Assembly: GCA_964530135.1 (NCBI GenBank)
Contig: CAZGXN010000001.1
Span: 68,110 to 132,109 of the forward strand
From: an uncultured Bdellovibrionales bacterium
GTDB taxonomy: Bacteria; Patescibacteriota; Minisyncoccia; Moranbacterales; UBA1568
Direction: 5' to 3'
Length of the DNA: 64,000 bases
The notes beneath the pieces were generated by a model. The model made no database searches. It saw only the letters and a program-made list of their open reading frames with translations, and was not told the DNA's origin. Below, one piece after another: positions 13,721-43,810 of the stretch. How positions within the stretch are numbered: position 1 is the first letter of the stretch; each line of letters opens with the position of its first letter. Made by a program: the position numbers and the translations under genes.

Positions 13721-14368
13721 TTATTTTTCTGTCTGCTTGGCTGAAGGCTTGCCGGACCAGTACCACCGGCCGATGACAACCCAAAATGCGATGAAGAATC
13801 CAGCCAAAAAACTCATACCGAGAGCGAACGGCAGTGTGAATCGGCCGTCACGAGCCAGCACCTCACTTGAGACGAGTGTAAACCAATTTTTATCCCTGGC
13901 TGATTCATTGAGACGCGCGACATACTGCTCCCCCACTTCAAGTAATGCAGCAGCGATTCGATCGGCCTCCACTGGTGTAGCAGCCTGATATGAAACCTGA
14001 ATGAGATTTGAGGAAAGACGAAGCGCTGTGAGTGGATTTCGAACAAATTCCCGCTCACGGTCCGCAGAGAACGACACTCGCCGTGCCGTCTCACGCCGGC
14101 CAATTTCAGTCTCGAGATACCGCGCAAGTGTCTCGGCCATCCGCTCATCTGCTTGCAGACGATAGAATTGGTCATATTGATAGCTCGTTGTTGCCTCTGT
14201 CCCCTGACGCGTGACTGAGAGGAGTACCTCGCCCTGATACCACTGCCCCTGCAAGCGATAACCGAGTATGCCACAAACAAGCGCAACGCCGACTACACCG
14301 GCAATGAGGTTTCTTTGCTGGACAAAAAGGGTGAGGAAGGCGCGCAATTCCATAGGTATTTCACTCAA
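13721..14368 (-). CDS. Wzz/polysaccharide co-polymerase-like chain-length determinant (two TM helices flanking a periplasmic domain)
   Basis: PCP-like topology. The TM helix near the N-terminus is LIAGVVGVALVCGILGY and the one near the C-terminus is FLAGFFIAFWVVIG. The gene sits between glycosyltransferases. Confidence 0.45.
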   Translation of the reverse strand: MSEIPMELRAFLTLFVQQRNLIAGVVGVALVCGILGYRLQGQWYQGEVLLSVTRQGTEATTSYQYDQFYRLQADERMAETLARYLETEIGRRETARRVSFSADREREFVRNPLTALRLSSNLIQVSYQAATPVEADRIAAALLEVGEQYVARLNESARDKNWFTLVSSEVLARDGRFTLPFALGMSFLAGFFIAFWVVIGRWYWSGKPSAKQTEK

Positions 14369-15513
14369 AGATATCCGTCTTGGGCCGATCCTGAGAATCC
14401 TCTCCGGCGACGCACGAGATGTTCGGCCACGAGACGCTCAACCGAGTTTTGTATTTTAGCCTGAAAAAGCACTTTGTCAAACCGCTGCGCCTGCTGTCGA
14501 ATATAGGCGCTATCATAACGACGAGTCAAAAATGCCTCAACGGCGCCAATCAAAGCCTCAGGTGATTGTTCATCAAAAAACTCCCCCATCCGGCCGGCAT
14601 CCAGATGTTCGATGATATCACCTCCACGATATGCAATGACCGGACGACCCGAAGCAAAGGCTTCTTCGGCAACGATCCCAAAGTCCTCCTCTTGAGGAAA
14701 GATAAATGCCCGACACTCAGCATAGTATTTTGGCAACGCCTCATCCGGCACGCGACCAAGGAATTCAATAGTCGGACCAGCGATTTTTTTAAGCCGTTCG
14801 AGTTCCGGACCACGCCCGATGATTTTGAGTGGAAGCTTCAGCCGATTGAATGCTTCAATCGCAATATCGTGCCGCTTGTACGCGATGAGCCGTCCAACCA
14901 TGAGGAAGTAGTCCTGACGAGCAGAGTCCGGCACCACAGAAAAGGCACTGACATCGACAGGTGGATGAATAACAATTGAGTCTTTGCGATAATACTTCGC
15001 GATGCGCGCCCGAACGAATTCGGAATTGGCAATAAAATGATCAACCCGATCGGCCGAAACTTTGTCCCAGAGACGGATGGGATTCATGAAAAATGGTACG
15101 AGCTGTTTGATGAAACGCGGGAAGCCAAAATCCTGCGTATACTTTTGACAGTCATCCCAAGCATAACGCATCGGTGTGTGCACATATGAGATATGCAATG
15201 TCTCCGGCCGAGTAATGATGCCTTTCGCATAACTCGAGGAATCCGACAAAACAACATCGTACTGGGAAAAATCAAAACTCTCAATCGCTGCAGGCATGAG
15301 TGGCGGGAAAAGCCGGTGATGTTTGCGAGCAAACCGCGAACGCTGCAGGAATGAGGTAACGATTCGCTTGCCGGAAAACTTTCCATGCATCGCTTCAGGA
15401 TCATGGAGGAGTGTATAAATCGGTGCGTACGGCCAAATTTCGGTGAACGCCTCAAGGACGCGCTCCGCTCCGCCATACTGCACCAAATAGTCGTGGACCA
15501 GCGCAATTTTCAT
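14365..15513 (-). CDS. Glycosyltransferase family 4
   Basis: MKIALVHDYLVQYGGAERV N-terminus and a GT4 C-terminal domain. Confidence 0.85.
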   Translation of the reverse strand: MKIALVHDYLVQYGGAERVLEAFTEIWPYAPIYTLLHDPEAMHGKFSGKRIVTSFLQRSRFARKHHRLFPPLMPAAIESFDFSQYDVVLSDSSSYAKGIITRPETLHISYVHTPMRYAWDDCQKYTQDFGFPRFIKQLVPFFMNPIRLWDKVSADRVDHFIANSEFVRARIAKYYRKDSIVIHPPVDVSAFSVVPDSARQDYFLMVGRLIAYKRHDIAIEAFNRLKLPLKIIGRGPELERLKKIAGPTIEFLGRVPDEALPKYYAECRAFIFPQEEDFGIVAEEAFASGRPVIAYRGGDIIEHLDAGRMGEFFDEQSPEALIGAVEAFLTRRYDSAYIRQQAQRFDKVLFQAKIQNSVERLVAEHLVRRRRGFSGSAQDGYL

Positions 15514-15739
15514 ATCGGGAAACTACAGATGTATTTATTGTACCCTACGCCCTCTCACACACCCCTCTTGACCACACCATCCCACCCCTTTCTCCGAACG
15601 CGACCGAATCAGATCGTGCACCTGGGCATGGAACACGCACTGGCTCAGATGTAAAGAGTATCCCGATACCCATCCGATTAAGATCATCCAGGTAAAAATC
15701 CGTATCTTCAGAGATGCTCCTATGGTAGCATTTTTCACT

Positions 15740-15769
15740 TTGACAAACTGGTGATGCTCTTGCTAATAT
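15740..15769 (+). promoter_or_regulatory. Sigma70-like promoter TTGACA-18-TAATAT upstream of the three-gene small-protein operon
   Basis: ttgaca at 15740-15745, 18-nt spacer, taatat at 15764-15769. Confidence 0.5.
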
Positions 15770-15820
15770 CTCGGACACAGAAACAGGTGTCGTTCCTTCC
15801 CAACATGTCAGGAGATCCCC

Positions 15821-16123
15821 ATGCAGACTATCATCGTGAAAAACATCACCGCGCTCCCAGGTGAAACAGTTCACCCCCAGACCATGATCCGGGCACTCAA
15901 TGGCATTCCGATTCCGTTTGACCTGCAACGCGCCTATACCCAGATCATGAATCAGCCGAAACTCCGATTACCCTCGACCGCCTATCTCCCCGTCCTCATC
16001 ATGGACATCGTGGAGGCACTCGGCGCGCACAACCGCATCGAGGCCATGATCTACTGGCGCGATGTCATCCGGCCGTATTACCTCGCTATCCCCATTACGA
16101 GTTGTACGCTCAACGAAACCTAA
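15821..16123 (+). CDS. Small hypothetical protein P1 (100 aa), paralogous to the next gene
   Basis: RBS AGGAG at 15806-15810 precedes the ATG. The sequence can be aligned by eye with P2 (...LPGETV... / ...GDGLETV...; C-termini PITSCTLNET / PIDCARLIET). Confidence 0.6.
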   Translation: MQTIIVKNITALPGETVHPQTMIRALNGIPIPFDLQRAYTQIMNQPKLRLPSTAYLPVLIMDIVEALGAHNRIEAMIYWRDVIRPYYLAIPITSCTLNET

Positions 16124-16139
16124 CCCCACAGGAGCTCTC

Positions 16140-16442
16140 ATGCCGAAAAAAATCCGCATCATCAAAGTCCCGTCCGGCGACGGGTTAGAAACTGTCCGAT
16201 CAAGTTTTGTCGGCTGCGAATTCAAACTCGCTGATCCGTCAATCACAGAACTCATCCGACAGAAATACTTTGCCGACTTGGCTATCGAATTGCCACGCAC
16301 CTATGAAGTCACCTTTGCCGAAACCCTGACTGGCCTCATCGCCGGTTGCCAGTATGAATGTGCTGACTATCTCAGAAGCCTCCGCTGCAAGCCCCATCTC
16401 ATTCGATTCCCCATCGACTGTGCCCGGCTCATCGAAACCTGA
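16140..16442 (+). CDS. Small hypothetical protein P2 (100 aa, MPKK... N-terminus, 5 Cys), paralog of P1
   Basis: RBS AGGAG at 16129-16133 and ATG at 16140. Confidence 0.6.
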   Translation: MPKKIRIIKVPSGDGLETVRSSFVGCEFKLADPSITELIRQKYFADLAIELPRTYEVTFAETLTGLIAGCQYECADYLRSLRCKPHLIRFPIDCARLIET

Positions 16443-16453
16443 AGGAGACTCAC

Positions 16454-16858
16454 ATGCTTCCCCTACTCACTGTATTGGTCGGTCCGACTGCCAAAATCGA
16501 TGTACGGAAAGGTACCACCAACCGCGCCTTGCGGAAACTGGCGACCCTCACCGCGCAGTGCATCAACTTCCAGCACGACACGGGCAAACCCTGCCGTCCG
16601 GGAGATGTCGTGATCCGGCTTTTTCTCTCGCCTGACTGTCCGGTGTACACGCTGAATGCCGGCGATGTCTCGGTCTCACTCGAGCTCGCCGAATCGGACC
16701 TCCCTCCACAAGATGAAGAATCCATCAGCGAATTCACTGATAGCCTCGCTGAGGCAATCGTGAACGACGGCCCCTTCGCTAGAACTGCCGGCGGAACTGC
16801 CGTCACCCACTGCCAGGTTCGTTGCGGGCATTACCTCGGCCGTGTCGTGATGTTCTGA
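16454..16858 (+). CDS. Small hypothetical protein P3 (134 aa, acidic middle, C-terminal HCQVRCGH)
   Basis: RBS AAGGAG at 16442-16447 and ATG at 16454. The gene lies just before the terminator. Confidence 0.6.
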   Translation: MLPLLTVLVGPTAKIDVRKGTTNRALRKLATLTAQCINFQHDTGKPCRPGDVVIRLFLSPDCPVYTLNAGDVSVSLELAESDLPPQDEESISEFTDSLAEAIVNDGPFARTAGGTAVTHCQVRCGHYLGRVVMF

Positions 16859-16902
16859 ATGCATCACTCCACTGCGCCACTGCGCAACGCGCACAATAAA
16901 AA

Positions 16903-16940
16903 AGAGACGACCCACCCCGGCCGTCTCGCTTTTTTTTCTG
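16903..16940. terminator. Rho-independent terminator (GAGACGACC...GGCCGTCTC stem plus T8), bidirectional between convergent genes
   Basis: A stem of about 9 bp with one mismatch, followed by gcttttttttc. Confidence 0.6.
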
Positions 16941-16955
16941 ATTGCTGCTCAATGA

Positions 16956-17981
16956 CTACACTCCGAAGTACTCTTTGTACCAATCAACAAAGTTCTTGAT
17001 ACCGGCTTCAATACGAGTGGTCGGCTTCCAGCCGAGTTTCCTGAGCTTGCGGATATCTGCGATGGTACTCGGCACGTCGCCAGGCTGGATGGGCATCATT
17101 TTCTGCTTCGCTTTCCGGCCTACATGCTCCTCGATGACCTCGATAAAACGGGTAAGTTTTTCTTCCTTGTCGCCACCAATGTTCATGATAGTGCAAACGA
17201 GATTTGCATCGAGACAGGTCAGAACGCCTGAGACAATATCATCAATATACGTGAAGTTGCGAGTCATATTGCCGTAATTGTAGACACTGATCGTTTTGCC
17301 TGCCAAGATGTCCCGAGTGAAAGTAAAGAGTGCCATATCCGGTCGACTCCATGGACCGTAGACCGTGAAGAAGCGCAGGCCCGTCGTCGGCAATCCGTGA
17401 ATGTGGCTATAGACATGTGCCATGAGCTCGGTCGCTTTCTTCGTCGCTGCATAGGGCGAGATCGGCGTATCAACCGGATCACTCTCGGCGAATGGCAACT
17501 TTTTATTATTACCATAGACACTCGATGACGAGGCATAGAGGAAGTTTTTCACGCCGTACTTAACGGCGAGGTCGAGGAGATAGGTGGTCCCCATCACATT
17601 TACATCAGCATAGATGGCCGGATTACGGAGACTATTCCGCACCCCTGCCATCGCTGCGAGATGAATAACTTTTTCGGGCCGCTCTTTCTTGAAGATCTTC
17701 TCCAAAAACGCCCGGTCGCGGATATCACCGCGATAGAGTGTGAACTTCCCCTTGTAGCCCTTCAAAAACTTCTTGATCCGATCCTCCTTGATCTGCGGAT
17801 CATAGTAATCATTAAAATTGTCGATGAGGATAGGCCAATCTCCACGCTCCATGAGGGCCCGTGCTGTTGCGCTGCCGATAAACCCAGCGCCGCCAGTAAT
17901 GAGGACTTTCATACCCTTCTTTGGGGGCTTCATTTTCTTCGCGCTCGGGCGGACCGTCTGAACCGATTTTTTGACTGGCAT
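16956..17981 (-). CDS. NAD-dependent epimerase/dehydratase (likely UDP-sugar 4-epimerase, e.g. UDP-glucuronate/GlcNAc)
   Basis: GGAGFIGS Rossmann motif and the YAASK catalytic motif (YAATKKATE). There is a roughly 23-aa basic N-terminal extension, and M 17912 is an alternative start. Confidence 0.85.
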   Translation of the reverse strand: MPVKKSVQTVRPSAKKMKPPKKGMKVLITGGAGFIGSATARALMERGDWPILIDNFNDYYDPQIKEDRIKKFLKGYKGKFTLYRGDIRDRAFLEKIFKKERPEKVIHLAAMAGVRNSLRNPAIYADVNVMGTTYLLDLAVKYGVKNFLYASSSSVYGNNKKLPFAESDPVDTPISPYAATKKATELMAHVYSHIHGLPTTGLRFFTVYGPWSRPDMALFTFTRDILAGKTISVYNYGNMTRNFTYIDDIVSGVLTCLDANLVCTIMNIGGDKEEKLTRFIEVIEEHVGRKAKQKMMPIQPGDVPSTIADIRKLRKLGWKPTTRIEAGIKNFVDWYKEYFGV

Positions 17982-23210: not shown

Positions 23211-23246
23211 ACTCGGGTCACCATCGATACTGCGGGCTTGATGCGG
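23211..23246. repeat. Direct repeat copy B, abutting the 3' end of tRNA-Ser
   Basis: See copy A. The last 3 nt overlap the tRNA discriminator region. Confidence 0.6.
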
Positions 23247-23330
23247 AGAGGGAGGGATTCGAACCCTCGAGGGAGATTAATCCCCGCCACGTTAGCAGTG
23301 TGGTGCCTTAAGCCACTCGGCCACCTCTCC
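23244..23330 (-). tRNA. tRNA-Ser (anticodon GCU), 87 nt with a long variable arm; CCA not encoded
   Basis: The reverse complement reads GGAGAGGTGGCCGAGTGG...ACTGCTAA(anticodon loop, GCT)...long variable arm...GGTTCGAATCCCTCCCTCTCCG. The 7-bp acceptor stem GGAGAGG/CCTCTCC has discriminator G. Confidence 0.85.
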
Positions 23331-42777: not shown

Positions 42778-43212
42778 CTACTCCTCGATGATCGAACCGC
42801 CCTTCTTCAAAGTCTCGGCGGCGCTCGCCGTCATGTCGATATCCTTGCCGATGACGAGCTTCTTCGTGAGTTTACCGGTATTGACGATTTTGACACCCGC
42901 TCGGCGGACAACTTTGCCCAAAATCTTCTTCTCGACAAACGCATCGCGGGTTACTTTCTCACCATCCTGGAAATGCTTTTCGAGACGGTCAAGAGTTACC
43001 GTAAAGAGCTTCTGATAGACGGACTTGAACCCGCGCAGCTTCTTCATCCGTTCGACGAGTGATGAACGCCCACCTTCAAACAACGGATCTTTCTTCTTGC
43101 CATGTGCACCCTGGCCCTTGGTACCACGACCAGCCGTTGTGCCACGTTTGCCACCCCGACCGATGCGCTGCGTCTTCTTGCGGGGAGCGAGTTTGAGTTC
43201 GTGAATCTGCAT
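42778..43212 (-). CDS. rplO: 50S ribosomal protein L15
   Basis: MQIHELKLAPRKKTQRIGRGGKRGTTAGRG... Confidence 0.92.
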   Translation of the reverse strand: MQIHELKLAPRKKTQRIGRGGKRGTTAGRGTKGQGAHGKKKDPLFEGGRSSLVERMKKLRGFKSVYQKLFTVTLDRLEKHFQDGEKVTRDAFVEKKILGKVVRRAGVKIVNTGKLTKKLVIGKDIDMTASAAETLKKGGSIIEE

Positions 43213-43222
43213 ATTGAGTATC

Positions 43223-43810
43223 TTAGACGGAAACGGCTGTTTGCTTATCTTCTGTCTTATCCTCGATCTTCACTGCTGCCGGGTTCTCCGTTCCCCCATC
43301 TGTTTCAATACTGGTCCGAAGTTTCTGCAGCGCGAGCAAGGTCGCTTGAGCCACATTGAGGTTGTTGGAGCTACCGAGGGACTTAGCAATGATGTCTTTC
43401 GCGCCGAGGAGGTCCATGACCGCGCGCACAGCACCACCAGCGATGAGTCCACGGCCAGTTGTCGCCGGTTTCAACAATACCTTGGCACTCCCATACTTCG
43501 CCGTCACATCGTGAGCGATCGAACTCCCTGTGAGCACTACTGTAATCATATTCTTCTTCGCCGCTTGGAAAGCCTTCTGGATCGCATCCGAAACATCGCT
43601 GCCTTTGGCGACACCGACACCGACTTTACCCTTACGATTGCCGATGACGAGCGTCGCGCGGAAACGGAAGCGACGACCGCCTTTAACGACACGAGTAACA
43701 CGCGCCAGATTGAGCATCTTCTGGTCGTACTCTGGCCGTTCACGGCGCTGGCCGCGTGGTCCACCTCGCCGCGGTCGTCCACCACCCTTCATTTGTTCAT
43801 TCGTCGCCAT
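43223..43810 (-). CDS. rpsE: 30S ribosomal protein S5 (basic N-terminal extension)
   Basis: ...MLNLARVTRVVKGGRRFRFRATLVIGNRKGKVGVGVAKG... No L30 gene lies between S5 and L15. Confidence 0.92.
   Translation of the reverse strand: MATNEQMKGGGRPRRGGPRGQRRERPEYDQKMLNLARVTRVVKGGRRFRFRATLVIGNRKGKVGVGVAKGSDVSDAIQKAFQAAKKNMITVVLTGSSIAHDVTAKYGSAKVLLKPATTGRGLIAGGAVRAVMDLLGAKDIIAKSLGSSNNLNVAQATLLALQKLRTSIETDGGTENPAAVKIEDKTEDKQTAVSV

Follow-up and report, generated by a model that had tools for sequence, protein, structure and literature searches.

The small genes P1, P2 and P3 are, as judged from sequence comparison, a reduced and rearranged copy of a larger operon specific to one CPR lineage. P1 and P2 are assigned to a new family of ~100-aa proteins with five subfamilies, A, B, C (which includes P1), X and D (which includes P2). 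At least eight related CPR genomes carry arrays of two to five such genes in one and the same chromosomal slot. P3 appears to be the gene of a swappable cassette that was joined to the P2 operon by deletion. The original prediction had described the three genes as an orphan operon, but all three have homologues in related genomes. The relevant features of the window (the whole 64-kb stretch of DNA analysed) are:

14365–15513, minus strand: GT4 glycosyltransferase gene, flanking (Pfam); 82–85% identical to its orthologues
15578–15705, minus strand: M10 stub, a pseudogene; frameshifted 5′ remnant (~50 codons) of a Peptidase_M10 gene, located by tblastn
15740–15769, plus strand: predicted sigma-70-type promoter; TTGACA, 18-nt spacer, TGcTAATAT
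15770–15820, plus strand: 5′ UTR of P1, containing the P1 Shine-Dalgarno sequence AGGAG (15810–15814)
15821–16123, plus strand: P1, 100 aa, assigned to subfamily C of the new small-protein family
16140–16442, plus strand: P2, 100 aa, assigned to subfamily D, paralogue of P1
16454–16858, plus strand: P3, 134 aa, unrelated to P1 and P2; putative cassette gene fused to the operon
16904–16937, plus strand: predicted intrinsic terminator; hairpin GAGACGACC...GGCCGTCTC followed by T8
16956–17981, minus strand: NAD-dependent sugar epimerase gene, flanking and convergent with the operon (Pfam); 87–90% identical to its orthologues

Operon organization and expression signals

Rechecking of the coordinates placed all three ORFs on the plus strand in a compact unit between two minus-strand sugar genes, GT4 and the NAD-dependent epimerase, as first described. 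The promoter proposed at the same time was also recovered. Its −35 box TTGACA (15740–15745) and −10 box TAATAT (15764–15769) match the consensus at 10 of 12 positions, and an extended −10 TG is present. Six loci besides the window (L006, L008, L011, L014, L016 and L018) retain TGnTA(A/G)TAT, the −35 box and the spacer length 5′ of the first array gene, irrespective of whether an A, B or C gene comes first. The 5′ UTR of P1 showed no significant structure upon folding (z = 0.24). Shine-Dalgarno sequences precede each ORF at the close spacing expected, with AGGAG 6 nt 5′ of the P1 ATG, AGGAG (16130–16134) 5 nt 5′ of the P2 ATG, and AAGGAG (16442–16447) 6 nt 5′ of the P3 ATG, the last of which overlaps the stop codon of P2. 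P1 and P2 are 16 nt apart, and P2 and P3 11 nt, not the 13–17 nt given earlier.

A strong terminator had been anticipated and was confirmed as a GC-rich hairpin (16904–16927) with T8 at 16930–16937 (−13.6 kcal/mol, z = −2.7). It may serve both directions, including the convergent epimerase gene, because an A-run lies upstream of the hairpin. The same hairpin follows the arrays of L006 and L018, and occurs twice in each of L011 and L021. These elements support P1–P2–P3 as a self-contained transcription unit with strong predicted expression signals. Local GC is raised as suggested, but modestly so: P1 (0.548), P2 (0.518) and P3 (0.588) span 0.52–0.59 against 0.50–0.53 for the flanks. GC3 is 0.59–0.72 for the small genes and 0.49–0.63 for the flanks.

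P1 and P2 define a new small-protein family

The five subfamilies were defined by all-against-all BLASTP and an alignment of 28 domains. P1 and P2 both align over their full length to the resulting family template, a domain of about 95–100 aa. Its N-terminal half comprises an I-x-I strand, a proline at about position 12, an L-V-G strand, Y-x-V and a D-x4-L helix; the C-terminal half comprises a G-R-x2-A-x2-Y-W helix followed by I-P-x2-C-C. Direct BLASTP comparison of P1 with P2 was weak (E = 0.03). To avoid circularity, each subfamily was tested with an HMM built without any of its own members. The profile lacking D members recovered P2 with E = 1.1e-5 (22.7 bits, compared with about 6 bits or less for background ORFs), and the profile lacking C members recovered P1 with E = 7.5e-12, confirming the paralogy first noticed by eye. 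Subfamilies A and X were recovered with E = 1e-13 to 1e-17, while subfamily B was marginal (E = 0.002 to 13).

Orthologues of P1 are found at nine loci with 30–60% identity, and those of P2 in L006, L011, L014, L018 and L016 with 40–48% identity. X and C are fused in two independent proteins (P0011 and P0012), which share 63% identity and were each present in two samples. No family copy other than P1 and P2 is present in the 64-kb window. The distribution appears narrow, with members found in one CPR (Moranbacteria-like) lineage. A 115-aa minus-strand "gene" at L007 runs antisense to subfamily A and was rejected as a family member.

The sole invariant column over the 28 domains is a leucine, and no polar residue is conserved. 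Family proteins have a near-neutral pI, lack long hydrophobic segments and signal-like N-termini, and are predicted to be cytoplasmic α/β proteins. An AlphaFold2 model of P1 built from a four-sequence alignment (pLDDT 84, pTM 0.77) predicts the order β-(loop)-α-β-α-β-α-α-β-β, with five strands. Foldseek searches of the PDB and BFVD with this model, a check proposed at the outset, gave nothing significant and no convincing structural neighbour.

Sequence searches likewise bore out the statement that P1–P3 match no known family. Pfam, NCBIfam, PHROGs and PADLOC returned no significant match for any of the three proteins. P1 and P2 matched nothing in these collections even when E was relaxed to 10, and P3 gave noise only (E = 0.04–0.1, well below cut-offs). 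Profile-HMM libraries searched against all 28 domains yielded none at E < 0.05, and PDB sequence-profile searches gave only noise. A Spindlin match was rejected (E = 0.47), as were designer-PPR matches to the D profile, a summed-repeat artefact in which no single stretch passes. SH3-like small β-barrel domains (SH3, KOW, PsaE, Tudor-like) are named among the nearest known systems. The family is new in the weak sense of having no known match; no new mechanism has been demonstrated.

Closely spaced small genes transcribed together would be expected of an addiction module with two components, such as a type II toxin-antitoxin system, as had been suggested. We regard this as highly improbable, as the partners are paralogues of one fold rather than an unrelated toxin and antitoxin, and relatives carry multi-paralogue arrays of 2–5 members plus fusions. 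The proteins are near-neutral, not basic, and searches for toxin-antitoxin, defence and DNA-binding families found none.

The tautomerase superfamily (4-OT/MIF) was considered for P2, in which Met-Pro precedes a β-strand, and for P3, in which the predicted elements follow, by eye, a β-α-β-like order. P2 does start MP and contain five cysteines, as reported, and C26 and C94 alone are conserved within subfamily D. The hint of a catalytic Pro1 fails: the residue after Met in the D orthologues is P, P, S, N, P and S, giving Pro2 in only three of six, and Pfam gave no tautomerase or MIF match at thresholds as loose as E = 10. Both P3 and its homologue start with MLP and so lack Pro1, and a tautomerase was rejected here also.

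Related arrays and the reduced state of the window locus

The slot is flanked by the GT4/M10 genes (divergent from the array) and the epimerase gene (convergent) in L006, L008/L010, L011, L013, L014, L016, L018 and L021. One GTDB representative genome also carries an array. All loci were found through subfamily C searches, such that the sample consists of array-bearing relatives. Gene order is usually A-B-C-D, with an X-C fusion in place of C in two species and the order C-X in the more distant L013 and L017. Start and stop codons overlap by 4 nt at A/B and B/C (L006), C/D (L014, L021) and C/X (L017); other junctions have gaps of 10–30 nt. L008/L010 lack D, and the D gene of L016 carries a frameshift.

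A word-indexed search of 5.8 billion proteins returned two homologues of P1 (55–60% identity), and self-matches only for P2 and P3. This search missed P2 and P3 homologues that were later found through genomic context, and its "singleton" results were consequently distrusted. An exhaustive search of 1.84 billion proteins with the P1-group profile yielded only seven representatives, including two tandem fusions of ~190 aa. No match was found upon scanning genome contigs with P3 or viral contigs with C, D and P3 profiles, and tblastn against phages and plasmids found no relatives. The only match of a metagenome scan with the D profile (L020) was rejected as pattern-driven, with a high-GC source organism and a family-HMM E-value of 0.55. 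A literature search by accession numbers found no mention.

The array always lies inside the same polysaccharide cluster (GT4, Wzz-like, polymerase, epimerase and methyltransferase genes), even in the distant L013, where flanking genes are 60–70% identical to those of the window. This constancy could indicate surface-glycan accessory factors, namely scaffolds or regulators that act in envelope polysaccharide synthesis with the surrounding cluster genes. We consider such a role rather unlikely, given that the array is encoded on the other strand from the glycan genes, has a promoter and a terminator of its own, evolves at 4–10 times their rate and readily loses members. The gap between array and epimerase holds differing genes (YaaC-like, SDH/ClpP-like protease, a 166-aa ORF, membrane protein), and a cupin gene is also found in the slot. 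As the slot gathers such unrelated variable genes, its position may reflect a permissive hotspot rather than shared function. Synteny inside one lineage may also arise from inheritance and not functional linkage.

In relatives, a gene for a membrane-anchored Peptidase_M10 protein is transcribed divergently from the array; L013 lacks it. Only the stub of this gene is seen in the window: tblastn matched IRIFTWMILIG to M10 residues 7–17 (73% identity) and GIGILFTSEPVRVPCPGA... to residues 19–50 (44–61% identity) in a different frame. The P1 promoter is orthologous to the promoter found 5′ of A or B elsewhere. This orthology, together with the M10 remnant, implies that the window lineage lost the M10 body, A and B. 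The three-gene form had originally been taken as native, whereas A-B-C-D is the usual form from which the window operon would derive.

P3 derives from a swappable cassette

A single P3 homologue was identified (L011:2419–2823, 134 aa), with 52% identity over a gapless alignment (E = 2e-48). The acidic tract and C-terminal H-C-x3-C-G-H motif noted previously are present in P3 (H119-C120-x3-C124-G125-H126). H-C-x3-C-G, C47 and C62 are kept in the homologue, the final histidine is not. C47, C62, H119, C120 and C124 are candidate ligands of a Cys4/His zinc site, kept in two sequences only at this 52% identity. The single-sequence AlphaFold2 model of P3 was unusable (pLDDT 33). P3 was rejected as a distant member of the P1/P2 family, with an hhalign probability of 0.04% and no relation found by the family HMMs.

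The L011 homologue is located 3′ of the D gene, between two copies of the array terminator, and has its own promoter-like site. In the cassette 5′ UTR, a long hairpin (−31 kcal/mol, z = −4.4) engages the Shine-Dalgarno sequence in base pairing. The same non-coding framework occurs in L021, where the hairpin (−30 kcal/mol, z = −3.9) has a different apical stem that still pairs, and where the cassette encloses an unrelated 126-aa ORF. Homology of this ORF to P3 was unsupported (hhalign E = 0.11). Because L011 and L021 share a framework that encloses unrelated ORFs, P3 is identified as a likely swappable-cassette gene. In the window, the DNA separating D from P3 is gone, leaving P3 11 nt behind P2. 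P3 would thus have been joined to the operon by deletion, and not be the native member first assumed.

Evolutionary rates

All small-gene orthologue pairs gave dN/dS below 1 (0.19–0.71, highest for D at ~0.7). Values were 0.19–0.39 for P1, 0.27–0.47 for P2 and 0.27 for P3, with dS saturated. Among the flanking genes, dN/dS was 0.03–0.08 for GT4 (about 0.05–0.06), epimerase (0.03–0.07) and methyltransferase, and 0.07–0.19 for M10. The dN of the small genes was 4–6 times that of GT4. Protein identity between the window and L006 was 55% for P1 and 40% for P2, compared to 73–90% for flanking genes; between the window and L011 it was 52% for P3 and 87% for the epimerase. Within one species (L008 versus L010), the small genes differ by five nonsynonymous and one synonymous changes, against zero and nine for GT4 plus epimerase (Fisher p = 0.002). 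These rates mark P1–P3 as real coding genes, fast-evolving yet under purifying selection, with selection overall weak or partly diversifying. The faster rates might instead stem from relaxed constraint acting on genes of marginal use, with no accessory or conflict role behind them.

Part of the locus is decaying, as seen in the M10 stub, the loss of A and B and the frameshifted D in L016, and the small genes are weakly constrained relative to their neighbours. P1–P3 might on this basis be decaying or spurious ORFs without function, and a decaying triad confined to one genome had been raised as a possibility. This is very unlikely. Homologous arrays are present in related genomes, and the P1, P2 and P3 frames are intact, with 40–60% identity to orthologues (gapless for P3) and dN/dS of 0.2–0.5 with saturated dS. 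The triad keeps its promoter, ribosome-binding sites and terminator, P1 has a confident predicted structure, and contigs of five independent assemblies carry the triad with no sequence difference.

The same rates bear on a possible conflict module, in which immunity-type or anti-phage/anti-competitor binding paralogues would be under diversifying pressure, possibly tied to the neighbouring secreted M10 protease or to toxins. Raised dN/dS (up to 0.7 for D), the intraspecific nonsynonymous excess, the tandem arrangement of paralogous ~100-aa cytoplasmic proteins, variable array gene content and changing neighbours (among them YaaC-like protein and ClpP-like protease genes) are all in keeping with this idea. 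Immunity-protein arrays of polymorphic-toxin and bacteriocin loci are similarly composed of small, cytoplasmic, fast-evolving tandem proteins of variable copy number that often go unannotated. A conflict module nevertheless seems improbable to us. No recognisable toxin gene is found nearby, and none of the neighbours (GT4, M10 protease, epimerase, YaaC-like, SDH protease, cupin) has a known toxin or delivery domain. PADLOC, Pfam (including its immunity families) and NCBIfam match no member, and phage and plasmid collections hold no relatives. The subfamilies are orthologous and keep their order between genomes, without lineage-by-lineage expansion, and C and D persist where M10 has been lost (window) or is absent (L013).

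Proposed role and comparison with known systems

We tentatively favour a reduced, lineage-specific operon that encodes co-assembling, non-enzymatic binding subunits of an accessory module at an envelope locus. An ancestral-type operon would have encoded three to five paralogous proteins of ~100 residues from subfamilies A, B, C, X and D. In the window lineage, A and B would have disappeared along with most of the adjacent gene for the membrane-anchored M10 metalloprotease. The terminator, the promoter and the RBS-burying hairpin that part D from the swappable cassette may subsequently have been deleted, such that the unrelated cassette gene P3 is now predicted to be co-transcribed with P2. One strongly expressed mRNA would supply the paralogues in fixed ratios for a putative hetero-oligomer, acting by binding and not catalysis. 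This complex would constitute an accessory, rapidly evolving module of the cell-envelope locus as opposed to a housekeeping one. We infer co-assembly from translational coupling and fusions, which are only suggestive, and from fixed gene order, and non-enzymatic action from the lack of a conserved polar residue over the 28 domains. A bolder version, which we think unlikely yet credible, is an undescribed hetero-oligomeric system of new fold in one CPR lineage, driven at high level by a conserved promoter and coupled to a hairpin-gated swappable cassette, whose fast evolution would follow from a part in conflict or host/phage interaction at the envelope locus.

WXG100/Esx proteins are ~100-aa paralogous partners encoded by adjacent genes that heterodimerise. 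The arrays resemble them in protein size, tandem paralogy and lack of signal peptides, and would do so in the presumed hetero-association. P1 differs in being predicted as α/β with five strands in place of a helical hairpin; no WXG100 Pfam match was obtained, and the array loci showed no genes for type VII secretion. A RiPP precursor array was rejected, as the C-terminal strands, including the CC motif, lie within the confidently folded P1 domain and no modifying enzyme is adjacent, a radical-SAM gene in L013 being ~9 kb away.

Unannotated, lineage-specific ("dark") families are common in CPR genomes. The present family resembles these in being restricted to one lineage, unannotated and encoded beside envelope and cell-surface genes, but differs in its five fixed-order subfamilies, fusions, conserved promoter and terminator, and predicted hairpin-gated cassette. 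CPR genomes are tiny, yet this lineage keeps several paralogues of a small protein for which no relative turned up in sequence or structure searches, with strong predicted expression and genes that change several times faster than their surroundings. If the proteins do assemble and act at the envelope, host or phage interface, they would provide a handle on how uncultured episymbionts meet their surroundings, along with a new small fold. If they are weakly constrained leftovers, the locus would be a clean case of CPR reductive evolution, with loss of a protease and two paralogues, and capture of a cassette gene by deletion.

Genomic setting and host lineage

The window is chromosomal, as indicated by genes for ClpB, EF-G, EF-Tu and SecY and a ribosomal-protein cluster. 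Within it, the S5 gene (43223–43810) abuts the L15 gene (42778–43212), and no L30 gene lies between them. L30 is one of the families missing in CPR genomes (PMC6744442). A CPR, Moranbacteria-like host lineage is supported, and a cluster-mate of the L013 protein is annotated in NCBI as a hypothetical protein of a Candidatus Moranbacteria bacterium.

In two homologous loci from other genomes, L011 and L021, the tandem array of ~100-aa paralogue genes is followed, after its subfamily D gene (the P2 subfamily), by a cassette (locus-internal coordinates):

L011 2279-2421 and 2859-2882: cassette after subfamily D
L021 5213-5357 and 5764-5790: cassette after subfamily D

Two copies of the array terminator (a hairpin and T-run) flank each cassette with its post-D gene, and each cassette carries a promoter-like site of its own. 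In both, a strong 5'UTR hairpin is predicted to pair with the Shine-Dalgarno sequence (-31 kcal/mol, z = -4.4 in L011; -30 kcal/mol, z = -3.9 in L021). The inner stems differ in sequence between the two loci, with pairing kept in both. The encoded ORFs are unrelated to each other, being a homologue of the 134-aa P3 in L011 versus a 126-aa ORF in L021.

Between the array (or the adjacent Peptidase_M10 gene) and the conserved glycan genes, each genome has a different accessory gene, in what looks like a local insertion hotspot:

L006 10688-11839: YaaC-like protein gene
L011 2889-3389: 166-aa ORF
L014 3037-3381: cupin gene
L018 2634-3539: SDH/ClpP-like serine protease gene
L021 5813-6484: multi-pass membrane protein gene

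An intact Peptidase_M10 gene, divergent from the array, is present in L006, L008/L010, L011, L014, L016, L018 and L021. In the window, its counterpart is a frameshifted remnant:

Window 15578-15705, minus strand: first ~50 codons of a gene for a matrixin-type, membrane-anchored Peptidase_M10

Gene calls in the arrays of L016 and L007:

L016 6389-6741: subfamily D gene split over two reading frames
L007 622-969, minus strand: 115-aa ORF from the gene caller
L007 739-1053, plus strand: subfamily A gene

HMM positions 1-44 of the L016 gene lie in one frame and 51-97 in the other; the gene is a pseudogene, or else the assembly is in error at this point. The L007 115-aa ORF overlaps the subfamily A gene in antisense and was rejected for that reason as an artefact.

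Short hairpins were also seen just 3' of the predicted transcription start at several loci (window 15766-15800; L006 9314-9338; L016 upstream of subfamily B). Their sequences are unlike one another. Stability was not significant for the window hairpin (z = 0.24) and modest for that of L006 (z = -1.2).

P2 and P3 were singletons in a word-indexed homology search. Contigs of the same public origin nevertheless contain homologues at 40-52% identity, so a word-indexed 'no hit' is not evidence of absence here.

Across the 64-kb window, Rfam matching returned a single tRNA gene only, and two ribosomal protein genes adjoin:

Window 23244-23330, minus strand: tRNA gene (Rfam match)
Window 42778-43810, minus strand: S5 then directly L15 genes, 10-nt gap

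No L30 gene lies between S5 and L15, an adjacency consistent with a CPR bacterium. The relative L013 is labelled Candidatus Moranbacteria. The locus in L010 (CAZCTF010000032.1) is syntenic with the window, with flanking proteins 82-88% identical; the MAG's label, 'uncultured Bdellovibrionales bacterium', is probably wrong.
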